Source of the DNA: Patescibacteria group bacterium | GTDB lineage: Bacteria > Patescibacteriota > Patescibacteriia > Patescibacteriales > UBA12465 | Reading direction: 5' to 3' | Assembly: GCA_023229115.1 (NCBI GenBank) | Contig: JALNZW010000008.1 | Coordinates: 1-61,178 of the forward strand | DNA: 61,178 nt | Shown: positions 30,917 to 61,066 of the stretch, one piece after another | How positions within the stretch are numbered: the first letter of the stretch is position 1 | Layout: every line of letters begins with the position of its first letter | Position numbers and translations under genes: made by a program | The notes under the pieces: generated by a model | What the model was told of the DNA's origin: nothing | What the model saw: only the letters and a program-made list of their open reading frames with translations | Databases searched by the model: none

Positions 30917-32722
30917 ATGAATATCATGAATAGATTAAAAAATTATATAAAAAGAGTAGTCAAAAAAGACAAATTTTTATTATTTGTTATTCTTTTTTCT
31001 GTGTTTTTTTTGTTAATGACTTCAGTTTTGCCTAATTTTCAAGAAAAAAACGATTTTTTAAAGTTTTTCTCACCCGATGAAAATGCCAATTATGTCTTTA
31101 CTAAACTATATGCTCAAACTGGCGATCTTTATGTTTTTGAAAAATATAATCTTATAGCCGAAGATATTGTTCGTCCTAGAAGTTATATTAGCGAAGGTGG
31201 TTTTATTAAACCAGTTAGTTTCTTGGGGATGACTATTTATTATGGTTTTTTAGCTAAAGTTTTTGGCATTGGCATAATTCCTTATTTAACTCCTTTTTTT
31301 GCCGCTCTGGCTTTGGTCTTTTATTATTTGTTGATCAAGAAATTATTTGATAGTAAAAATGCTTTTATCTCCACTTTGCTATTATTTTCCTTTCCTGTCT
31401 TAATTTATTATTCGGCTCGCAGTTTGTTTCACAATGTTTTATTTCTGTCTTTTTTGATTATTGGCCTTTATTTTCTGTCAGTCTTATTTGAAAAAAGAAT
31501 ACCTTCGCCGGAAAAAGATGAAGATAAATATTTAAAAAAATTATTTTCTGTCGATTTTTTGTTTTCAGCTCTTAGTGGTTTGTTTTTTGGTATGGCCATC
31601 GCCGTTCGATCTTCTGAGCTTATTTGGTTATTAATGGCTGCCTTTTTGTTTTTGATTATAAAAATTAAAAAATTAAGTTTATTAAGATTAACAGTTCTTG
31701 TTTCTTTCTTTGTTTTAGCTCTCTTGCCTGTTTTTTATAATAATCAAATTTTATATGGCTCTCCTTTTTATGGTGGTTATTATGAAATGAATAAGTCTAT
31801 TAGCCAAATTAGCCAGGCTGGGGGAGGGATAATAAAATCTGTTTTTACTGGTAGCTTAGCAGATGTTAAAATTCTTTTAAAATTTGTTTTTAAAACTGTT
31901 TTTTATTTCGGTTTTTACCCTCTTCAATCCTTGGAAATGTTTGATAAATATTTTGTGAAAATGTTTTGGTATTTATGTTGGCCAGCAGTGTTGGGTTTTG
32001 CTGCTTATATTTTTACAGAGAAAAAGAAGTTAAAGAAATTTTATCCTTATTTTGTTTCCTGGTTTTTAGCCTCAATCTTCTTGATTTTTTATTATGGTTC
32101 TTGGAAGTTTGTTGATAATCCTGATCCAAGTCGATTTACAATCGGTAATTCTTATACCCGTTATTGGTTACCAGTTTATATTGGTATCTTGCCCTTTGTT
32201 TCTTATTTTATATTAAAAATTGGAGTAATCTTTGTTTTTATAAAAAAAGAGAAAATACGAAAAATATTTTCAAATTCTTTGTCAGTATTATTTCTTGTAT
32301 CCCTAGTGTTCTTATCCTTCAAATATGTTTATAGTGGCTCAGAGGAGGGTTTAAAACATTATTTTCCCAAAACAGAAAGAGCTATAGCAGAGGTTTCTAG
32401 GGTTATTGATTTAACTGAAAATAATTCAGTAGTAATAACTGAATACCATGATAAATTTTTATTTCCAGAAAGAAAAGTAATTGTTGGTCGTTTTAATGAT
32501 GACAACATGAACAGAAATTATAGCAGGCTGGTTGATTATTTGCCGGTTTATTATTTTAATTTTACTTTTCCGGAAAAGGATTTAGAATATTTAAATAGCA
32601 GAAGGTTAAAGGATTTTGATTTACAGATTGAATTAGTAGAGGAAATTAATGAAACCTTTTCTTTGTATAAACTTTATTCATTCTGTCATCCCAGCGAAAG
32701 CTGGGATCCAGTTAAATATTGA
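30917..32722 (+). CDS. Polytopic GT-C type glycosyltransferase (GT39/ArnT-like)
   Basis: 601 aa with more than 10 TM, an acidic first loop (FSPDENANYVF) and a soluble C-terminal ~130 aa. The family call is tentative. Confidence 0.45.
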   Translation: MNIMNRLKNYIKRVVKKDKFLLFVILFSVFFLLMTSVLPNFQEKNDFLKFFSPDENANYVFTKLYAQTGDLYVFEKYNLIAEDIVRPRSYISEGGFIKPVSFLGMTIYYGFLAKVFGIGIIPYLTPFFAALALVFYYLLIKKLFDSKNAFISTLLLFSFPVLIYYSARSLFHNVLFLSFLIIGLYFLSVLFEKRIPSPEKDEDKYLKKLFSVDFLFSALSGLFFGMAIAVRSSELIWLLMAAFLFLIIKIKKLSLLRLTVLVSFFVLALLPVFYNNQILYGSPFYGGYYEMNKSISQISQAGGGIIKSVFTGSLADVKILLKFVFKTVFYFGFYPLQSLEMFDKYFVKMFWYLCWPAVLGFAAYIFTEKKKLKKFYPYFVSWFLASIFLIFYYGSWKFVDNPDPSRFTIGNSYTRYWLPVYIGILPFVSYFILKIGVIFVFIKKEKIRKIFSNSLSVLFLVSLVFLSFKYVYSGSEEGLKHYFPKTERAIAEVSRVIDLTENNSVVITEYHDKFLFPERKVIVGRFNDDNMNRNYSRLVDYLPVYYFNFTFPEKDLEYLNSRRLKDFDLQIELVEEINETFSLYKLYSFCHPSESWDPVKY

Positions 32723-32771
32723 TCTGGATTCCAGTTTTTTTGCCTACCGGTAGGCAAGGTGCGGGAATGAC
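32684..32771. repeat. G+C-rich palindromic repeat element of the VIPAKAGIQ / WIPAFAGMT type, two inverted units
   Basis: tgtcatcccagcgaaagctgggatccag ... ctggattccag-T6-tgcctaccggtaggcaaggtgcgggaatgaca. Hairpins cccagc-gaaa-gctggg (32690-32705) and ttgcctacc/ggtaggcaa (32740-32757). Ends are inverted: tgtcat-ccc versus gggaatgaca. Confidence 0.6.
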
Positions 32772-35103
32772 AAAATTAGACATGACTTATAATATTATTA
32801 CAATTGGGTGCCAAATGAATGTGGCTGATAGCGAAAGGCTTCGTTTTTATTTGGAAAAACTTGGTTTTAAAAATGAGCCTGATTTTTTGTTAGCCAAATT
32901 AGTAATTTTTGTTACTTGTGGTGTAAAGCAGGCAGCTGAAGATCGTATCCATGGGCTTATTAATAGAATCTATAAAAATAATAAGAAAACAGTGATTGTG
33001 GTTACTGGCTGTCTTAGTGATAGGGATGATTTGCATAAAAGTTTGAAAGGCAGGGTAAAAATTTGGTTTAATATTTCTGATTTATTAAATTTTGATAAAA
33101 AGTTGAAAAATTTTTTTCCAACAATTAAAAAAATTACAAAAAAAGAAAATAATTATTTAGAATTGGCAGCTGATTATTCCTCTAGCTTCTCGGCTTTTGT
33201 ACCTATCGGTAACGGTTGTAACAATTTTTGCTCTTATTGTGTGGTTCCTTATGCTCGGGGTAGAGAAGTTTATCGTCCAGCCTATGATATTTTAAAAGAA
33301 GTGCAAAAATTAATTAAAAAGGGCTATAAAGAAATAAGCTTGATAGCTCAGAATGTTAATAGCTACAAAGTAGATAGTGACGATAGGATAGAAGAGGAAT
33401 TTGGTTTTAAATTAAAAAATAAAAAAATTGATTTTGCCGACCTTTTGTCTATGGTTGATAAATTGGAAGGAGATTTTTGGCTACGATTTTCTTCTAGTCA
33501 CCCTAAAGATGTTAGTAATAAGTTGATTACAGTTTTAAAAAAAACAAAACATCTTTGCGAGCATTTTCATTTAGCTGTTCAGTCTGGTGATAATCATATT
33601 TTAGAGGCAATGAATAGAAGGTATACAATTGAGACTTATAAAGAAAGGGTTAAAAAGATTAGAGAGTCTCTGGATTTTAAAAATGGTTTTTCGGCTTCAA
33701 TTACTAGTGATGTTATTGTTGGTTTTCCGGGAGAAAAAATAAAAAACTTTAACAACACTAAAAAGCTTTTTAAAGAAATAAGCTTTGATTTGGTTTATAT
33801 TTCTAAGTATAGTCCTCGTTACAAAACAGTTTCTTCTTATTTGAAAGATGATGTTAGTCTATCCGAAAAGAAAAGGAGAGAAAGGGAGCTGAATATTATT
33901 TTAAGGAAAACGGCCTTAAAAAATAATCAACAATATCTAAATAAAGTAGTGGATATTTTAATAGAAGGTTTTGATCGCAAAGGTTTTTTAACTGGTAGAA
34001 CTAGAACTTCCAAGCTTGTGAGAATAAGTCATAAAGTTGCTTGTCCTAATGATTTTATTGGTAAATTTGTTAAAGTGGAAATTACTAATGTTTTCGAGTT
34101 TGAACTTCAAGCCAAGATTGTTGGTTACGACTTTTCATGTTTAAGTATTCCCAAGTATAGTAAAGATAAAAAGAAAAAAATTTCTCAAAAAAAAGGGAAA
34201 GTGGTTGTTGTTTTGGGTCCGACTGCTAGCGGAAAAACATCTTTGGCGGTAAGGTTGGCTGATAAATTTAACGGAGAAATAGTTAGCGCTGATAGTCGTC
34301 AAGTTTATAGGGGTATGGATATTGGTACCGGCAAGGATTTAGCTGAGTATTATTTTGAAGATAAGAAAATAAATCATCACTTAATAGATATAGTTAATCC
34401 GCAAGAAATTTTTAATTTAGCTGATTATCAAAAACAGGCTTTTTTGGCTATTGATGATATTATGGGTAGGGGGAAGTTGCCTTTTTTAGTTGGTGGTAGT
34501 GGCTTATATTTAGAGGCAGTAGTTGATAATTATTTATTATCTGAATCAAAACCATCTTTTGAGAAAAGAGATGAATTTGAGTCTTTAGAGATTTCAGAGT
34601 TACAAAAAAGAATTAAGAGTATTAACAAAAAATTTTTTCTTAGTTTAAATAATAGCGATTTAAATAATAAAAGAAGGTTGGCTCGTTATTTAGAGGTTTT
34701 GTTGAATGAAAAATCTTTTGAAGCAAAAAGAGGTAAAAGAAAATATGATTTTTTGATTTTGGGACTTAACCCAGAAAGGGCGGTGGTTAAAGAAAAAATA
34801 TATAAAAGATTGTTAGATAGGATAAATAACGAAGACATGATTGGCGAGGTCAAAAGACTTCATAAATCTGGTGTTAGTTATGAAAGACTAGAAAGTTTTG
34901 GTTTAGAATATCGTTTTATATCTTTATTCCTGCAAAATAAAATAAGCGAACAACAATTAATTGATCGCTTATTTGTAGCTATTTGTCAGTTTTCTAAAAG
35001 ACAAATGTCTTGGTTCAGGAGATGGGAGAAAAATGGTGCTGAAATTGTTTGGCTTGAAAATAAAAATGATGTTGTTAAATTTATTAAATCTTTTTTAGGG
35101 TAA
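32767..35103 (+). CDS. miaB/miaA: Apparent MiaB-MiaA fusion (tRNA i6A37 methylthiotransferase plus tRNA dimethylallyltransferase)
   Basis: MiaB part: GCQMN, VTGC, radical-SAM CNNFCSYC and a TRAM domain ending ...QAKIVG. A K-rich linker follows, then MiaA: VVVLGPTASGKTSLAVRLA, SADSRQVYRGMDIGTGK. The track start at 32719 lies inside the repeat element; the ATG at 32767 or 32782 is likelier. Confidence 0.75.
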   Translation: MTKLDMTYNIITIGCQMNVADSERLRFYLEKLGFKNEPDFLLAKLVIFVTCGVKQAAEDRIHGLINRIYKNNKKTVIVVTGCLSDRDDLHKSLKGRVKIWFNISDLLNFDKKLKNFFPTIKKITKKENNYLELAADYSSSFSAFVPIGNGCNNFCSYCVVPYARGREVYRPAYDILKEVQKLIKKGYKEISLIAQNVNSYKVDSDDRIEEEFGFKLKNKKIDFADLLSMVDKLEGDFWLRFSSSHPKDVSNKLITVLKKTKHLCEHFHLAVQSGDNHILEAMNRRYTIETYKERVKKIRESLDFKNGFSASITSDVIVGFPGEKIKNFNNTKKLFKEISFDLVYISKYSPRYKTVSSYLKDDVSLSEKKRRERELNIILRKTALKNNQQYLNKVVDILIEGFDRKGFLTGRTRTSKLVRISHKVACPNDFIGKFVKVEITNVFEFELQAKIVGYDFSCLSIPKYSKDKKKKISQKKGKVVVVLGPTASGKTSLAVRLADKFNGEIVSADSRQVYRGMDIGTGKDLAEYYFEDKKINHHLIDIVNPQEIFNLADYQKQAFLAIDDIMGRGKLPFLVGGSGLYLEAVVDNYLLSESKPSFEKRDEFESLEISELQKRIKSINKKFFLSLNNSDLNNKRRLARYLEVLLNEKSFEAKRGKRKYDFLILGLNPERAVVKEKIYKRLLDRINNEDMIGEVKRLHKSGVSYERLESFGLEYRFISLFLQNKISEQQLIDRLFVAICQFSKRQMSWFRRWEKNGAEIVWLENKNDVVKFIKSFLG

Positions 35104-37665: not shown

Positions 37666-37752
37666 GGAGAGGTGGCTGAGCGGCTGAAAGCAGCATCCTG
37701 CTAAGATGTTAAGGGGGAAACCCCTTCAAGGGTTCGAATCCCTTCCTCTCCG
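37666..37752 (+). tRNA. tRNA-Ser (anticodon GCT), CCA not encoded
   Basis: Acceptor ggagagg/cctctcc, anticodon loop ctGCTaa, long variable arm aaggggg-aaa-cccctt, T-arm aaggg-ttcgaat-ccctt. Confidence 0.9.
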
Positions 37753-37758
37753 CGAACG

Positions 37759-37786
37759 AAAAAAGACGCCAAAATGGCGTCTTTTT
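37759..37786. terminator. Hairpin terminator after tRNA-Ser
   Basis: aaaaagacgcc-aaaat-ggcgtcttttt. Confidence 0.65.
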
Positions 37787-37794
37787 GAGTGAGT

Positions 37795-37962
37795 GGAGAG
37801 GCGGCAAGCCAACTGCTTGGCTTGCCGGGGATGAGAAAGCCGGAGCGATGTGCCGAAGTAAAACGTAGGCACCGCGAGGCGGGGTCGCGAGTTCTTAGTG
37901 AACGCAAATCGCGTAGCGATTAAGTGAACTTAGAAACTCGTGACCGAATCCCTTCCTCTCCG
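37795..37962 (+). ncRNA. G+C-rich structured element B with tRNA-Ser-like termini (candidate novel ncRNA)
   Basis: Starts with ggagagg and ends with cctctccg, which are the acceptor strands of the adjacent tRNA. Inside are a perfect 10-bp hairpin (37803-37826), gggat/atccc, gcg-gtgcc/ggcac-cgc, an 11-bp helix 37883-93/37934-45 with a G.U that is valid only on the plus strand, and aatcgc/gcgatt. Confidence 0.45.
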
Positions 37963-37967
37963 CGAAC
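37945..37967 (+). repeat. Exact 23-nt direct copy of the tRNA-Ser(GCT) 3' end and trailer (original at 37735-37757)
   Basis: cgaatcccttcctctccgcgaac occurs at both positions. Confidence 0.9.
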
Positions 37968-38008
37968 AAAAATGACCCAAATTTCTTTGGGTCATTTTTT
38001 GTTTGTTG
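37961..38008 (+). repeat. 48-nt repeat (cgcgaac plus terminator hairpin plus gtttgttg), left copy
   Basis: cgcgaacaaaaatgacccaaatttctttgggtcattttttgtttgttg. Matches 60851-60898 except for 2 loop positions. Confidence 0.9.
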
Positions 38009-38090
38009 ACAGCAGAGAAGGGATTCGAAAGACGGAAACGATGCTTGAACGAAGTAAACACTGCTGAGACTAAGCCAAGATGTTTGTTAA
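38009..38090 (+). other. Decayed, A+T-shifted partial copy of the G+C-rich element (B')
   Basis: gaagggattcgaaagacggaaacgatgcttgaacgaagtaaac aligns with C ggaggaattcgaaagccggaggcgatgtgcggagtgaaac, but the helices are no longer complementary. Confidence 0.4.
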
Positions 38091-51015: not shown

Positions 51016-51102
51016 GGAGAGGTGCCAGAGTGGTTGAATGGAACAGTCTTGAAAACTGTCGTGCCTTAACGGGTACCGAGGGTTCGAATCCCTCCCTCTC
51101 CG
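51016..51102 (+). tRNA. tRNA-Ser (anticodon TGA), CCA not encoded
   Basis: Acceptor ggagagg/cctctcc, anticodon loop ctTGAaa, long variable arm, T-arm gaggg-ttcgaat-ccctc. Confidence 0.9.
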
Positions 51103-51110
51103 CGAACAAA

Positions 51111-51137
51111 ATAGCCCTTAAATAAGGGCTATTTTTT
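51111..51137 (+). terminator. tRNA terminator
   Basis: atagccctt-aaat-aagggctat followed by T5. Confidence 0.65.
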
Positions 51138-51202
51138 GCAGAGTGTTTATTACTTTGGAACTATTTGGTATAATAAAATTATAAATAAGACAAAATAATT
51201 CA

Positions 51203-51622
51203 ATGCAAGAAAAAGTAAATATAATAAAAACTATAGGGGTTTTAATAATAAAAGACAATAAAGTTCTTTTGGTTAAACATGGAAAGTCAGCCGAGCATCT
51301 AAATAATAAATATGGTTTGCCAGCTGGAAGAATAATTTTGGGTGAAAGTGAAAAAGAAGTAGCCAAAAGAGAGTTAAAAGAAGAAACTGGACTAGATGTC
51401 GATTTGGATGATTTAATTTTATTATCAAAAGAATGGAGCGCTAAAATAGAAAGAAAAGATGGTATAAAAGAGTTTTCTTTAAAAGTTTTTTATTCTGATA
51501 AATTCTCAGGTAGTTTGATTGGTAGCAATGAAACACATCCGGAATGGATTACTATTAATGATTTAGATAATATTGATTTATTACCTAATGTTTTGGATAT
51601 TATTAATTCTTGTATTAAATAA
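51203..51622 (+). CDS. NUDIX hydrolase
   Basis: Nudix box AGRIILGESEKEVAKRELKEETGL. Confidence 0.85.
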   Translation: MQEKVNIIKTIGVLIIKDNKVLLVKHGKSAEHLNNKYGLPAGRIILGESEKEVAKRELKEETGLDVDLDDLILLSKEWSAKIERKDGIKEFSLKVFYSDKFSGSLIGSNETHPEWITINDLDNIDLLPNVLDIINSCIK

Positions 51623-51627
51623 AAAAG

Positions 51628-51654
51628 TTCCAATTACGTCCCATCCTCTCCGCC
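51628..51654 (+). repeat. Degenerate copy of a tRNA-Ser 3' end
   Basis: ttccaattacgtcccatcctctccgcc compared with the tRNA ttcgaatccc(tc/tt)cctctccgcg. Confidence 0.5.
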
Positions 51655-51725
51655 AAGAATATTTAGTATCGGAAGACCCGAGTGCCTTGATTTTATTGAG
51701 GTTTCTGAGATGATAAAATCGTCAA

Positions 51726-51777
51726 AAGTTCGAACCTTTAAGGGATTCGAACTTTTTTGTTTTTTGACTAGTTTTAT
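51726..51777 (+). repeat. Direct repeat R1 (terminator-like hairpin agttcgaa/ttcgaact)
   Basis: A 37-nt exact match aagttcgaacctttaagggattcgaacttttttgttt with 59156-59192; similarity extends about 15 nt further. Confidence 0.85.
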
Positions 51778-51869
51778 GATAAAATATTACTGATAATATT
51801 TAATTTTTTCTAGCGCAATTAATGCATTTTTAATACCATGAATATAAATTTACTTACTTAAAAAAATAT

Positions 51870-58468: not shown

Positions 58469-59098
58469 ATGAACAATCTTCCAGAAAAAGGAACAAAAGA
58501 ATACGCACTAGCAGATGCTCTTTCCAGACCAAATGCAATGAATGGATTATATAGAAAATTAAAACTGCCCTTGGAATGGGAAAACTTAAATAAAAAAGAT
58601 GCTATTTACATAACAAATTTGGCAGATTTAGCGGACAGAGTTATACAGGAAGCCATAGATAACGGAAAAGATTTAGACGATGTTAAAGCCCAAGAAGAAT
58701 TACGAGCTACTTTTTATGGAGGATCAGTTGGCACATCTCTTTCTGTTAGTTATTTTAAATATAAATTATTAATTTTTGGAATAATAACCTATATACTATC
58801 TGTTATATCTTCAGCAAAAGATCTTCAAGGAAATTATACCGCGTCAACTACTATAATCGCTTTATCAGTAATAACAACAATGATATTCACAATTATGGCT
58901 ACAGTTCGTTTGTGGAAAATAGCAAAAATTACATCGATCCTATTGTTTGTTTTCTCTTTGCTTAATTTAGTGTTATCATCAACAATAATTCATTGGATTA
59001 GTTTTTTAGTTTTTCTTTGGGCGATGTGTCTCCTCTGGGAAATGACGAAACGTGAAAAAAATACCGACTCAAGCGCCTCAAATACTTTAATCGAGTAA
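58469..59098 (+). CDS. Hypothetical membrane protein (soluble N-terminal domain plus 4 TM)
   Basis: ORF track, 209 aa. Confidence 0.5.
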   Translation: MNNLPEKGTKEYALADALSRPNAMNGLYRKLKLPLEWENLNKKDAIYITNLADLADRVIQEAIDNGKDLDDVKAQEELRATFYGGSVGTSLSVSYFKYKLLIFGIITYILSVISSAKDLQGNYTASTTIIALSVITTMIFTIMATVRLWKIAKITSILLFVFSLLNLVLSSTIIHWISFLVFLWAMCLLWEMTKREKNTDSSASNTLIE

Positions 59099-59155
59099 TC
59101 AGCTTTATTAAATTGAACTAGTGGGTATTTAACCTAGTTGGCCCGTCAGATTATC

Positions 59156-59207
59156 AAGTTCGAACCTTTAAGGGATTCGAACTTTTTTGTTTCTTAGCTA
59201 GTTTTAT
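59156..59207 (+). repeat. Direct repeat R2
   Basis: See R1. Upstream ggcccgtcagattatc resembles a shortened version of 51675-51725. Confidence 0.85.
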
Positions 59208-59245
59208 ACTAGATTATAGATAGTAAATTGTAACCTACTTAATCT

Positions 59246-59788
59246 ATGGAGTTAGAAATTTTAAAAAAATTAATAGATGAGAGTGATGAGAATAAACTAG
59301 ATAATGTTGTCTCGGATGGGGTGTTGAATTTAACAGAAAAACAAAAAGAAACTGTTAATTTTGTTTTTTGGTTTTATTATTTAGTAGAAACTGATTTAAA
59401 TGATGTTTTAATTAATTGCTGGAATAGTGCTATTAAAAATGTAGATGAGTTTATCAGGGAAGAGTCTGTAAAAATAATAAAGAAAAAAGTTTTTAAAGAT
59501 GAAAATAAGGATATTGATAATTTAGAGTATTTTAGAGATAAAATAAAACTTTATGTTTTTGCTAAAGGTGAGAGTGAGCTTTCAAAAATTTTATGGAAAA
59601 TTAACGATATTAGAAATGATTTAAGTCACAATAGAATTGATAAATTGGAATATAAGAACAGAAGTTTATACTTAAAAGAAACAAAAAAAGAGCTGTTGAT
59701 TGATTACCTTGCTTTGAAGAAAAATGATCAATTTGTTTTTAAAGGATCTTTTAAGGACGTTTTAGGAGATATAAATTTTAATGAATAA
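59246..59788 (+). CDS. HEPN-like (Abi-type) protein
   Basis: 180 aa, all-helical. INDIRNDLSHNRI contains an R-x4-H motif at nt 59612-59629. Confidence 0.45.
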   Translation: MELEILKKLIDESDENKLDNVVSDGVLNLTEKQKETVNFVFWFYYLVETDLNDVLINCWNSAIKNVDEFIREESVKIIKKKVFKDENKDIDNLEYFRDKIKLYVFAKGESELSKILWKINDIRNDLSHNRIDKLEYKNRSLYLKETKKELLIDYLALKKNDQFVFKGSFKDVLGDINFNE

Positions 59789-59933
59789 TTTTCACTACCC
59801 CTTTAGTAATTTTAATCTTACTCCTAAAACAACTCATCAACTCTCGTTTTTCTTCTTTTGTTCTATATAAAATTTATCTCTAATTTATAATAAAGTGATA
59901 GAAATATAATGTTAATTATGCTATGCTTATATT

Positions 59934-60779
59934 ATGAAAAATAAAATAAAATTATTTCAAAAACAAAAAGTTAGAGCTGTTTGGGATGAAAATTCAGAGG
60001 AATGGCTTTTTTCTGTTATTGATGTTGTTAAAATATTAACCAATCAATCCAATTATCAATCAGCAAGAAAATATTGGAATAAGTTAGCAGAAAGGCTTAA
60101 AAATGAAGGTTCTCAAGTGGTGACAAAATGTCACCGGTTGAAATTATTAGCTCCCGATGGAAAAATGAGAGAAACAGATGTCGCTAGCACAAAAACTGTT
60201 TTACGCTTAATTCAATCTATTCCCTCTAAAAAAGCTGAGCCTTTTAAATTGTGGCTAGCTGAAGTTGGTAATGATCGAATCAATGAATCTCAAAGCCCAG
60301 AACTGACTATAGACAGAGCTATGATTTCTTATAGAAATTTAGGTTATAGTGAAGAATGGATTAATACTAGATTACAGTCAATTCAGTTTCGCAAAGAGCT
60401 CACTGATGAATGGAAAAGATCCGGGGTCAAAGAGGGTTCAGAATTTGCTATTTTAACAAATATTATGACTAAAGAGTGGGCTGGAAAAACTATTAAAGAA
60501 TATAAGAAATTTAAAGGTTTAAAGAAGGAGGGCTTGAGAGACAATATGACTAGCTTGGAATTAGCTTTAAATATATTAGCAGAAACATCAACTACCGAAT
60601 TAAGCAAAGCATTAAAACCAAGCAACATAGATAAAAATAAGGATATTGCTGAGCGTGGAGGAAAAATAGCTGGAACTGCTCGTAAAAACATTGAGGCGCA
60701 AACCAAGAGATCGGTTATTAGCCCAAAAAATTCCAAAAATTTAAGATTAAAAAAACAAGACAGCGACCCGAGTGCCTAA
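59934..60779 (+). CDS. Bro-N domain / DinD-like (DNA-damage-inducible protein D family) protein
   Basis: N-terminus KVRAVWDENSEEWLFSVIDVVKILT (Bro-N). C-terminal half KGLKKEGLRDNMTSLELALNILAETST...GGKIAGTARKNIE resembles E. coli DinD. Confidence 0.65.
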   Translation: MKNKIKLFQKQKVRAVWDENSEEWLFSVIDVVKILTNQSNYQSARKYWNKLAERLKNEGSQVVTKCHRLKLLAPDGKMRETDVASTKTVLRLIQSIPSKKAEPFKLWLAEVGNDRINESQSPELTIDRAMISYRNLGYSEEWINTRLQSIQFRKELTDEWKRSGVKEGSEFAILTNIMTKEWAGKTIKEYKKFKGLKKEGLRDNMTSLELALNILAETSTTELSKALKPSNIDKNKDIAERGGKIAGTARKNIEAQTKRSVISPKNSKNLRLKKQDSDPSA

Positions 60780-60850
60780 AATCTAGTACTGAAAAATCAT
60801 CAAAAAACCCTTATAATATTGCTATGTGGTGGTACTTAATTCTAGTAGCC

Positions 60851-60898
60851 CGCGAACAAAAATGACCCAAACTGCTTTGGGTCATTTTTTGTTTGTTG
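60851..60898 (+). repeat. 48-nt repeat, right copy
   Basis: cgcgaacaaaaatgacccaaactgctttgggtcattttttgtttgttg. Two loop substitutions relative to 37961-38008. Confidence 0.9.
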
Positions 60899-61066
60899 TG
60901 ATAGTAGGGGAGGAATTCGAAAGCCGGAGGCGATGTGCGGAGTGAAACGACGCACCGCCGAGGCCAGGTCAGAGCGCTTAGTGAGCGAAGTCGAACGAAG
61001 TGAGGCGAGCGAGAATTAGCGGCGTGTGACCGCATCTCTCCCTCTCAGTGGTGAATAAGTTCACTC
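60899..61066 (+). ncRNA. G+C-rich structured element C, homologous to B (candidate novel ncRNA)
   Basis: Shares gaaagccggag(g)cgatgtgc..agt.aaacg..gcaccgc.gaggc with B. Helices gggag/ctccc (60908-12/61038-42), gcg-gtgcg/cgcac-cgc (60930-39/60951-58) and ggtca/tgacc (60967-71/61027-31) show compensatory changes relative to B. Confidence 0.45.

Follow-up and report, generated by a model that had tools for sequence, protein, structure and literature searches.

What is the G+C-rich block that lies downstream of the tRNA-Ser(GCT) gene in the 61,178-nt stretch of Patescibacteria DNA analysed here (the window), and why does it end in a second copy of the tRNA 3′ end? We give a probability of about 0.5 to the reading that the block is a noncoding cassette without a recombinase of its own, inserted via the tRNA 3′ end and carrying a structured RNA as its cargo.

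The tRNA 3′ end is duplicated around a structured RNA

The tRNA-Ser(GCT) gene at 37666-37752 (plus strand, as are the features of the window annotated below) is intact and was called both by ARAGORN, which ends it at 37752/3, and by Rfam (RF00005, 56.4 bits), in agreement with the initial annotation. A repeat search identified tRNA nt 56-73 plus trailer (37735-37757) as the left member of a direct repeat, the right member of which (37945-37967) is an exact copy of nt 56-73 followed by cgaac. This 23-mer, cgaatcccttcctctccgcgaac, has an expectation of none in 100 shuffles, so the duplication proposed earlier stands; a further near-copy at 51085-51107, which differs at one position, is merely the 3′ end and trailer of tRNA-Ser(TGA). 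The insert, previously put at about 170 nt, measures 187 nt between the repeats (37758-37944), and the structured RNA is 168 nt long (37795-37962). As had been noticed, the block is rich in G+C, at 52-62% in a window of 31%.

Terminator hairpins are likewise present on either side. The first, term1 (37760-37786, -18.4 kcal/mol, z = -5.9), resembles an intrinsic terminator, is followed by U5 and belongs to a left-end segment (37753-37794) made of a C-GAAC trailer, the hairpin and the 8-nt spacer gagtgagt. The second, term2 (37963-38005, -21.3 kcal/mol), was the only one of the two reported by a simple terminator scan. We found that the left-end segment accompanies the RNA regardless of its left neighbour, which may be tRNA-Ser(GCT), tRNA-Ser(TGA), a ‘gamma’ end (L223) or a ‘beta’ end (L041), and that term2 is the hairpin immediately 3′ of tRNA-Ser(GCT) in the orthologous locus L067. 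The complete unit, hereafter copy 1, spans 37753-37962 in the window. It contains no ORF, and scan and inspection revealed no convincing sigma-70 promoter between the term1 hairpin and the closing helix (P1) of the RNA.

The segment 37795-37962 folds at -85 kcal/mol (z = -8.06), which none of 200 shuffles equalled, and its minus strand folds less stably (-73.1 kcal/mol, z = -6.1). In the predicted fold the right direct repeat serves as the 3′ strand of P1, and the 5′ ‘anti’ strand (37795-37832) is composed of ggagagg, the complement of tRNA nt 66-72, a G+C-rich hairpin of 11 bp with the loop CUGC (37802-37827), and gggau, the complement of nt 59-63; the anti strand is split by a hairpin in the same manner in L055, L171, L073, L015, L186 and L215. 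P1 encloses a three-way-junction core (37833-37944) that consists of the junction GAGAAA, P2 (GCC/GGC), a GGA/GA internal loop, P3 (GCG-AU-GUGCC...GGCAC-CGC) and a long P4 arm (GGGUCGCGAG...CUCGUGAC). The helices initially listed all recur in this fold, including ggagagg/cctctcc, gcg-gugcc/ggcac-cgc, aaucgc/gcgauu and 37883-37945, with the single correction that the hairpin has 11 bp and not 10.

The bulged-G/tandem-GA internal loop, together with a conserved G.U pair, suggests that the core may bind a protein. Known motifs were compared by eye: a hammerhead was rejected for its unsuitable junction lengths, as were other ribozyme cores and the T-box; a K-turn was rejected because the bulge of the internal loop is 1 nt instead of the 3 nt of a K-turn; and a tRNA primer-binding site was rejected because the anti strand lacks the required complement of CCA.

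The fold is conserved in a family of homologues

Patescibacteria-type genomes and metagenomes yielded about 90 homologues, with about 32 true homologues from species-representative genomes and 72 covariance-model matches in metagenome loci. Saccharibacteria are among the carriers (L019, L048), and the loci L159-L224 stem from groundwater or bioreactor samples. The family appears to be specific to Patescibacteria, and the metagenome-assembled genomes (MAGs) among its carriers that are labelled Gammaproteobacteria or Peptococcaceae are probably mislabelled; this taxonomic range, like the invariance of P2 and P3, is biased because the sampling of homologues demanded an exact 19-25-nt motif. Copy 1 belongs to the new family (model R1): it matches the covariance model over 37823-37962 (112.5 bits, E = 1e-29), shares in the covariation counted below, and has a P1 3′ strand identical to tRNA nt 56-73.

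The three-way-junction fold is common to the homologues, and 16 of its pairs have changed on both sides. For 60 distinct sequences, the share of paired cells is 96.6% compared with 87.3% after shuffling, and the covariation score is 0.29 compared with 0.12, a value of 0.29 being attained by none of 500 shuffles; slid controls gave only 29-46% pairing. The substitutions in homologues thus maintain the helices proposed for this locus, and the fold is conserved through compensatory changes. This conservation is specific to the tRNA-sense strand, as indicated by 106 G.U cells versus 14 A.C cells, and one G.U pair at a fixed position is kept in 48 of the 60 sequences. In P1 and P4 it is structure rather than sequence that is conserved. 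A protein-coding reading of the overlapping ORFs was ruled out by paired 1-nt indels and by homologue lengths, which range from 117 to 150 nt and are not multiples of 3.

These data bear directly on whether the block might be an inert leftover that folds fortuitously, such as a partially duplicated tRNA or what remains of a deleted genomic island. These genomes do harbour partial 3′ halves of tRNAs as well as decayed copies, as in L215 and in the window itself, where an older element copy (copy 3, 38006-38085, ..agagaagggattcgaaagacggaaacgatg..) follows term2. Copy 3 was recognised by alignment, can also be aligned with the intact element of L067 and gives no covariance-model match at E <= 1; its one-time anti strand survives as an inverted tRNA 3′ end at 38013-38029. 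Against such an origin for copy 1, about 90 homologues retain the fold via compensatory changes and near-identical units recur in differing contexts, and the G+C content is 56-62% where the genome has 31%. The covariation effectively refutes the leftover, which we rate as extremely improbable. The initial annotation had offered as one option the scar of a small element integrated into tRNA-Ser with 23-nt attL and attR; the small element is what best fits the evidence, and the word scar has to go, copy 1 being an intact member of a conserved family.

With Rfam 15, which includes models for riboswitches, ribozymes, retrons, the T-box, YrlA, 6S, SRP and RNase P RNAs, no match at gathering thresholds and then at E <= 10 covered 37830-37945, and the matches that overlap the block, all of 20 bits or less, are spurious microRNA and sRNA models on the terminator hairpins. 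A literature search for such an element returned nothing relevant. The family is apparently undescribed, and the earlier remark that no RNA family with this layout had been described agrees with both searches. In viral contigs, 19-mer and 16-mer patterns produced chance or coding matches only, with no covariance-model match, and a third pattern, the scope of which is the GUGGCC subtype only, excluded that subtype.

The 3′ strand copies the upstream tRNA

We assessed 93 copies for their upstream neighbours, 16 of which came without upstream sequence, leaving 77 evaluable. A tRNA gene on the same strand lies within 400 nt upstream of 54 of the 93 copies, at 23-79 nt in 50 of these, and the tRNA-linked copies cover at least 13 amino-acid specificities. 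The P1 3′ strand equals tRNA nt 56-73 at 18 of 18 positions in 40 of the 54, with a complementary 5′ strand, and C56 is where identity to the tRNA sets in at all the intact tRNA-linked loci that were aligned. The anti strand fits the element's own downstream repeat and not the upstream pseudo-tRNA end. This demonstrates that the element lies immediately 3′ of tRNA genes with many different specificities and that the sequence of its 3′ strand follows that of the particular tRNA ahead of it.

Constant adjacency to and co-orientation with tRNA genes, including some copies inside tRNA operons, also favour a resident, non-mobile host RNA that is coupled to the tRNA, co-transcribed with it and acts in cis on its maturation or on read-through. 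The anti strand would then pair with either the tRNA's own 3′ end or the downstream copy as a two-state switch, the core would sense a protein or ligand, and copies would spread and homogenise via unequal crossing-over and gene conversion at the repeats. Along the same line, the 18/18 identity is stricter than P1 pairing alone needs, and cores at different tRNA loci of one genome are alike (L020, L023 and L043; L037 and L062). Furthermore, the predicted fold of the whole read-through transcript allows the partners to be swapped at zero energy cost, and a hairpin of -44 kcal/mol (37940-38035) combines the copy of the tRNA 3′ end, term2 and the anti strand of copy 3. The lack of mobility genes among the families listed below points the same way. 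However, about 23 of the 77 evaluable copies have no nearby tRNA and are nonetheless intact by score (L161, for example, at 136 bits), the element occurs at only some tRNAs per genome, and protein-coding cassettes with similar ends take the same site. A switch of this kind also has to contend with the order of events, as folding of the tRNA precedes transcription of the anti strand, and with the terminator that usually separates tRNA and element. On balance we hold a resident RNA to be a serious but doubtful alternative.

The ends of copy 1 rebuild an acceptor stem, from which the initial annotation had derived its other option, a chimeric RNA with tRNA-like ends. This description holds for the window copy and not for the family, in which the closing helix pairs tRNA nt 57-68 with their complement and is variable beyond, often passing the discriminator or leaving nt 69-73 unpaired; for this reason we interpret the rebuilt acceptor stem as a by-product of antisense complementarity. 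A functional tRNA mimic, cleaved by RNase P and given CCA and perhaps an amino acid in the manner of tmRNA or viral tRNA-like structures, would accord with the ends of copy 1, L055, L171 and L073, where a perfect acceptor-like helix of 7-8 bp stacks on one that resembles a T-stem, and with a discriminator base copied from the tRNA. It is hard to reconcile with the majority of members, in which P1 pairs only nt 57-68 or overshoots the discriminator, and with T-loop nucleotides that are paired, leaving no D-loop/T-loop elbow. G3.U70 is an established identity element for AlaRS, and from these identity rules the copies at tRNA-Ala would be poor mimics, as their P1 excludes this position. In addition, ARAGORN and Rfam (E <= 10) identified no tRNA in 37795-37962, the only call at this locus being 37666-37752, ARAGORN found no tmRNA in the window, and the best Rfam tmRNA_permuted match, most of which falls beyond the core, scored 11.4 bits where the threshold is 47. 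Like tmRNA, viral 3′ tRNA-like structures and YrlA, copy 1 has ends that form an acceptor-like helix, with a large insertion replacing part of the cloverleaf; unlike them, the element has neither an elbow nor a tag reading frame, its acceptor mimicry is not family-wide, and no Rfam match is found. We therefore judge a tRNA mimic to be highly unlikely.

The unit is present, absent or replaced at one site

Locus L067 is syntenic with the window, its flanking gene and tRNA-Ser(GCT) being 68% identical. There, term2 and an intact element directly follow the tRNA and the copy-1 unit is absent, which is the arrangement that the initial annotation had suggested looking for as an empty site. Conversely, the copy-1 unit (98-99% identical) is found at another tRNA-Ser gene, tRNA-Ser(TGA), in the close relatives L219, L197 and L232, between flanks that are 99% identical to the window. 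Both observations support a small integrating element.

In the window, tRNA-Ser(TGA), called by ARAGORN at 51016-51102, is followed by a protein-coding cassette (51103-51652) that comprises cgaac, a terminator, a Nudix ORF (51203-51622) and the ‘gamma’ pseudo-tRNA end gttccaattacgtcccatcctctccg (51627-51652). The alleles found between such flanks are accordingly the RNA unit (L219, L197, L232), the Nudix cassette (window) and an NTPase gene (L234). The right flanks of the copy-1 unit differ among the window, L057 and L025, with divergence starting just past the discriminator (tRNA nt 73-75). At an empty site, tRNA-Ser would run straight into ccaagaatattt.. or term2. We sought a truly empty tRNA-Ser(TGA) site by exact-protein look-ups, in which the contigs mostly ended at the tRNA, and an exact look-up of the 172-aa flanking protein returned no record. 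Collectively, these results show that, at the same site, some related genomes have the unit, others lack it and others carry gene cassettes in its place.

The regions downstream of tRNA-Ser genes are arrays of short cassettes, each with C-NAAC and a hairpin at its start and a tRNA or pseudo-tRNA 3′ end at its finish; typical cargo includes Nudix, toxin-antitoxin, HEPN-like, macro-domain, HerA-like and helicase genes. The protein-coding cassettes are devoid of the three-way-junction core. A second intact member, copy 2 (60907-61048, covariance model 108.6 bits), has a 3′ strand resembling the tRNA-Ser(TGA) end and a P1 with 2 mismatches. On its 5′ side (60803-60898) is an ‘alpha’ cassette end (..ccttataatattgctatgtggtggtacttaattctagtagcccg) with cgaac and a 96% copy of term2; the alpha end is common to L023/L200, L167, L163 and L197. 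Elements also occur in tandem (L186, L059, L019 and L048), and the flanking repeat measures 18-23 nt, or 46-55 nt in tandem arrays.

These arrays raise the question of whether the fold acts as a single-stranded DNA recombination site, comparable to attC or to the attP of CTX phage, in an integron-like system that enters tRNA 3′ ends. Integron cassettes, like these, are short and promoter-less, form arrays at one entry site and carry defence or toxin-antitoxin-like cargo, and attC sites are structure-conserved, strand-specific folded elements at cassette borders. The defined cassette ends downstream of tRNA-Ser with Nudix and toxin-antitoxin-type cargo, the conservation of structure over sequence in P1 and P4, and the strand-specific fold are in line with this proposal. 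In contrast to integrons, IntI or an IntI-like gene was not seen locally, the fold is a three-way junction instead of a single imperfect hairpin with extrahelical bases, and entry is at a tRNA 3′ end. AAC...GTT closes the upstream hairpin, yet the full RYYYAAC/GTTRRRY core sites match only loosely by eye, and the fixed-position G.U (48 of 60) is more typical of RNA. Moreover, gene cassettes occur without the core, so the core is not needed in cis. We consider a single-stranded DNA site unlikely.

No mobility gene among the families listed near the element

The 25 most frequent Pfam families listed for the 50 ORFs of the window, and the 25 most frequent listed for 145 ORFs that lie up to 3 kb from 32 homologues, include no integrase, transposase or reverse transcriptase, which is consistent with the absence of a nearby recombinase noted initially. 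The ORFs adjoining the homologues are housekeeping genes. Three islands beside orphan copies encode a helicase, GIY-YIG, a methylase, a macro domain and HerA, and neither an integrase nor a transposase or reverse transcriptase was found in them. No retron was matched in Rfam; P1 resembles the a1/a2 of retrons, and unlike in retrons no adjacent reverse transcriptase was found among the families listed near the 32 loci.

P4-type integrase islands target the 3′ ends of tRNA genes, and ‘cis-mobilizable’ remnants of them keep only attL and attR. The element shares with tRNA-targeting islands a flanking direct repeat that covers the tRNA from the T-loop onwards, insertions stacked downstream of the tRNA and a strain-polymorphic site; in both, the insert brings a new 3′ end and a terminator with it, which keeps the tRNA intact. 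It departs from them in the size of its unit (about 190-210 bp), in encoding no integrase, with none seen among the families listed beside it, in an interior that is a conserved, covarying RNA fold and not a degenerate remnant, in a closing-helix strand that is the att repeat itself, and in the range of at least 13 amino-acid specificities. Like MITEs and REP/BIME sequences, it is small, noncoding and multi-copy, forms stable hairpins, has inverted end repeats (P1) and often lies beside terminators. Unlike the short target-site duplication of MITEs, however, its flanking repeat is the tRNA end, always from nt C56 (18-23 nt, or 46-55 nt in arrays), its ‘terminal inverted repeat’ varies with the target tRNA, and its interior has the covariation of an RNA, with G.U pairs specific to one strand. 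The Mauriceville and Varkud retroplasmids of Neurospora are mitochondrial plasmids with their own reverse transcriptase and a tRNA-like 3′ transcript end, and can acquire host tRNA sequences. The element is similar in its small unit, tRNA-like 3′ end and uptake of host tRNA sequence, and differs in that no linked reverse transcriptase was seen among the families listed.

A proposed cassette entering at tRNA 3′ ends

For the noncoding cassette that we favour, we propose the following scheme. The unit, consisting of the C-GAAC trailer with its intrinsic terminator, the anti strand, the three-way-junction core of about 110 nt and the copy of tRNA nt 56-73, would enter by recombining within the stretch that it has in common with the tRNA 3′ end, much as in Campbell-type integration of a circle, with the recombining enzyme provided in trans. 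Its own nt 56-73 and terminator would complete the tRNA gene after insertion, and the displaced original 3′ end would become the right repeat and the P1 3′ strand. The RNA could arise by read-through from the tRNA promoter or within a tRNA operon; in L031 and L165, co-oriented tRNA genes flank the copies at a distance of 23-40 nt, which leaves too little space for a terminator. Processing nucleases of the tRNA pathway might trim the transcript until a stable, P1-closed RNA of about 140-170 nt is left, and P1 would sequester the spare tRNA 3′ end and prevent it from mispairing with the tRNA body. RNA levels may be low because most units sit behind a terminator-like hairpin.

Several points weigh against this cassette. 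A circle of 190-210 bp is a poor substrate for recombination; the gain of both P1 strands for a new tRNA is not accounted for; no integrase, transposase or reverse transcriptase is linked among the families listed; and the polymorphisms could stem from homologous recombination between paralogous loci, L214 being such a rearrangement.

A broader and quite tentative idea is that Patescibacteria own an undescribed cassette-exchange system in which tRNA 3′ ends are the entry point, promoter-less protein and RNA cassettes are stacked downstream, and the three-way-junction RNA is active in the machinery. For example, the RNA or folded strand could show the duplex end of the target tRNA to a recombinase acting in trans, so that nucleic acid sets the target.

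If confirmed, the family would add a widespread structured RNA to a huge and poorly understood bacterial radiation, whose very small genomes make multi-copy noncoding elements unexpected. A closing helix rebuilt from the upstream tRNA would mean either tRNA targeting unlinked to an integrase or a new layer of control on tRNA transcripts. The hypervariable tRNA-Ser flanks with their defence-type gene cassettes bear on gene exchange among these episymbionts, and the repeats of the element break metagenomic assemblies at tRNA genes.

A G+C-rich putative RNA between two copies of a tRNA 3′ end

The window carries a tRNA-Ser(GCT) at 37666-37752 (+ strand; ARAGORN and Rfam), and we found that the 23-mer cgaatcccttcctctccgcgaac occurs exactly at both 37735-37757 and 37945-37967, with a chance expectation of none; with one mismatch, it also forms the end of tRNA-Ser(TGA) at 51085-51107. 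Between the terminator-like hairpins term1 (37760-37786, -18.4 kcal/mol) and term2 (37963-38005, -21.3 kcal/mol), the 168-nt block 37795-37962 (copy 1) has a G+C content of 56-62% compared to 31% for the window, and a fold of -85 kcal/mol (z = -8; minus strand, z = -6). Repeat search, ARAGORN, Rfam and G+C content confirm the exact tRNA 3′-end repeat around a G+C-rich block reported in the initial annotation, whose helices are exactly those of the computed fold; only the length of the hairpin (11 base pairs) and the inter-repeat distance (187 nt) needed correction. Its statement that no described RNA family fits this layout is also supported: at thresholds as loose as E ≤ 10, Rfam has nothing that matches the block, and no description of the family was found in a literature search.

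The acceptor stem said to be rebuilt by the ends of the block is present in copy 1, because the anti strand (the 5′ strand of the closing helix, P1) is the antisense complement of the tRNA end. As a family trait it fails, being imperfect or absent in most members. A genuine tRNA mimic, as this stem might suggest, is quite improbable: the likeness to tRNA-like RNAs is confined to copy 1.

Homologues and consensus fold

BLAST of the region within the window showed that term2 recurs at 60850-60898 (96% identical), followed by a homologous structured block (copy 2, 60907-61048). By alignment, a third, decayed copy begins at about 38010. A scan of species-representative genomes with a motif common to copies 1 and 2 gave 74 loci, of which about 32 are true homologues. 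These are confined to low-G+C MAGs, mostly named as Patescibacteria, Saccharibacteria, Falkowbacteria, Kuenenbacteria, Paceibacterota or Parcubacteria. High-G+C matches lie inside coding sequence and were rejected as chance. The covariance model, built on 27 members, scores copies 1 and 2 at 112.5 and 108.6 bits; a stricter motif applied to metagenomes gave 66 loci containing 72 model matches. Motif scans of viral contigs gave no family member. Carrier MAGs labelled 'uncultured Gammaproteobacteria' or 'Peptococcaceae' (loci L009, L015, L020, L023, L025, L030, L041, L043, L073 and L055) are low in G+C with Patescibacteria-like content; mislabelling, or mis-binning of the contigs, is probable. 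Assembly contigs frequently end at unit repeats.

The consensus fold is a three-way junction. Its closing helix P1 joins the 5′ anti strand to the 3′ strand; the junction reads GAAA, the P2-P3 arm consists of GCC, a GGA-GA internal loop and GCG-AU-GUGC..., and P4 is a long arm, variable at its tip, that stacks directly on P1. In 60 distinct sequences, 96.6% of cells are paired compared to 87.3% after shuffling, and the covariation score of 0.29 (0.12 shuffled) was reached by none of 500 shuffles. With slid partners, pairing falls to 29-46%. Substitutions in homologues thus preserve the proposed helices, with changes on both sides in 16 of the 29 pairs; P2 and P3 are invariant, partly since the search motif is located there. 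Next to this conservation, the idea of an inert remnant, for which the decayed third copy could speak, is barely credible.

G.U pairs outnumber A.C pairs (106 vs 14), and in 48 of 60 sequences the same position holds a G.U pair; only the tRNA-sense strand can therefore form the fold. The element shares array logic with integron cassettes but neither their shape nor their enzyme; that it is a site folding as single-stranded DNA, within an integron-like system, we consider unlikely. Small ORFs across the region were rejected as genes because element lengths (117-150 nt) do not keep to multiples of three and single-nucleotide indels occur in pairs.

Relation to the upstream tRNA

A same-strand tRNA gene lies within 400 nt upstream of 54 of the 93 copies (at 23-79 nt in 50 of the 54); for 16 further copies the contig end is too near to judge. 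The tRNAs are specific for Ser (four anticodons), Ala, Leu, Cys, Tyr, Asp, Met, Asn, Val, Pro, Gln and Phe; one copy that is truncated and scores low (L069) has tRNA-Lys upstream. The identity of the P1 3′ strand to the tRNA starts at T-loop C56 in all intact tRNA-linked loci that were aligned, and all 18 nt through the discriminator are identical in 40 of the 54 tRNA-linked copies. Identity usually stops 0-5 nt past the tRNA end, extending 46-55 nt only in tandem units (L015, L019, L048, L059, L186). The anti strand, the reverse complement of tRNA nt 57-68 (10-12 bp), differs with the tRNA. It is continuous and 3′ of the terminator hairpin in type A elements; in type B, which includes copy 1, a G+C-rich hairpin, often with the loop CUGC, separates its acceptor and T-stem complements. 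Among described families, we found none in which the closing helix of a conserved RNA exactly copies the adjacent tRNA 3′ end.

Upstream of one family member (L215, 650-800), the interval between tRNA-Ile and tRNA-Phe contains a tandem pair of partial tRNA 3′ halves, each running from the variable region to the 3′ end. They add to the evidence for recurrent recombination at the 3′ ends of tRNA genes in these genomes.

Cassette-like behaviour of the unit

A tRNA joined directly to term2, as sought in the initial annotation, is found in L067, a locus syntenic with the window (172-aa gene and tRNA-Ser(GCT), 68% identical), in which tRNA-Ser(GCT) is followed directly by term2 and then by an intact type A element. 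Compared to L067, the window carries an inserted copy-1 unit of 190-210 nt that separates the tRNA from term2, and copy 3 is the decayed form of its former type A element. In three close relatives (L219, L197, L232), the copy-1 unit, 98-99% identical, is found at tRNA-Ser(TGA), with site flanks 99% identical to the window. The junction reads (borders as slashes) ..ctctccg / cgaac-term1-RNA-..ctctccg / ccaagaatattt.. in the relatives and ..ctctccg / cgaac-terminator-Nudix ORF-gttccaattacgtcccatcctctccg / ccaagaatattt.. in the window; a third allele, in L234, likewise from a strain nearly identical to the window, carries an NTPase gene.

Term1 is always linked to the copy-1 RNA whatever its left neighbour (tRNA GCT, tRNA TGA or other cassette ends), and the right border is always just past the discriminator, within tRNA nt 73-75. 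The unit therefore consists of C-GAAC, terminator, anti strand, core and tRNA nt 56-73 (here 37753-37962). About 23 of 77 copies are orphans, and each of these lies 3′ of a pseudo-tRNA 3′ end, C-NAAC and a hairpin; their anti strand pairs with its own downstream repeat, not with the upstream pseudo-end, and P1 therefore belongs to the unit. Collectively, unit insertion is polymorphic, cassettes stack downstream of tRNAs, and the relation to tRNA nt 56-73 is fixed.

In L214 (320-485, compared with window 51639-51804), tRNA-Ser(GCT) and the copy-1 unit are joined to the window's post-tRNA-Ser(TGA) flank, a chromosomal rearrangement via the repeated units.

Protein-coding cassettes at the same kind of site

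The Nudix gene forms a cassette of its own (51103-51652: cgaac, terminator, ORF and the 26-nt pseudo-tRNA-Ser end gttccaattacgtcccatcctctccg). This end, gamma, also terminates unrelated cassettes in L032, L189, L190, L213, L171 and L223. The pseudo-ends before orphan copies are of three recurrent types, alpha, beta and gamma, all similar to the RNA element 3′ end (..GTGACCGAATCC..) and all right ends of protein-coding cassettes or islands, whose cargo includes DinD/Bro-like, HEPN-like, toxin-antitoxin, macro-domain, HerA-like, helicase and GIY-YIG genes. The alpha end (..ccttataatattgctatgtggtggtacttaattctagtagcccgcgaac; window 60749-60857, L023 1-55, L167 4117-4227), which includes a TATAAT-like box, follows a DinD/Bro-like gene in the window and different cargo in other genomes, with two tandem copies in L167. 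The beta end, of about 130 nt, is common to L041 and L005.

Both beta-end islands encode a small GIY-YIG nuclease-domain protein (L041 4276-4734; L005 4333-4752), together with a helicase and a DNA methylase in L041 and a macro-domain protein in L005; no integrase was found within 8 kb. Upstream of copy 2, three genes at 58469-60779 look like defence-island cargo: the third is DinD/Bro-like, and the other two are without a Pfam match, with an RNDLSH motif reminiscent of HEPN in one. A possible relic of an older unit is the terminator-like hairpin at 51725-51765, in the downstream flank of the cassette site at tRNA-Ser(TGA), which pairs a T-arm-like motif with its complement (aaagttcgaacctttaagggattcgaactttt).

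Possible mechanism and known systems

We hypothesize that the unit integrates through its identity to the tRNA 3′ end, in a Campbell-like manner, with an enzyme supplied in trans; no linked recombinase was found among the listed Pfam families of 145 neighbouring ORFs and 50 window ORFs, nor in three islands. The incoming unit would supply a replacement 3′ end and terminator, because of which the tRNA would survive, and would be transcribed from the tRNA promoter. Where a copy has tRNA genes on both sides at 23-40 nt and no terminator, as some do, it must belong to the tRNA precursor. Such copies would also suit an RNA that resides in the host and acts in cis, coupled to tRNA maturation, which is possible but doubtful. 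For the integrating, P1-closed noncoding cassette as a whole we estimate a probability of about one half. Here P1 would define the RNA ends and hide the spare tRNA 3′ end, which, if unhidden, can exchange with the real one in the precursor according to folding of the read-through transcript.

Like a tRNA-targeting integrative element, the unit has attL/attR from the T-loop, the tRNA is repaired and insertions pile up downstream; unlike one, it lacks an encoded integrase and is smaller by a factor of ten to a hundred. MITEs are similar in size and copy number but differ in the flanking repeat. On motif-anchored sampling, we rate the element as outside known kinds.

Elsewhere in the window, a 794-aa ORF (32719-35103) is an apparent fusion of a MiaB-like radical-SAM methylthiotransferase, read from the translated sequence, and MiaA (IPP transferase), the IPPT domain being the only Pfam match. 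MiaB and MiaA activities are two consecutive steps in tRNA A37 modification.
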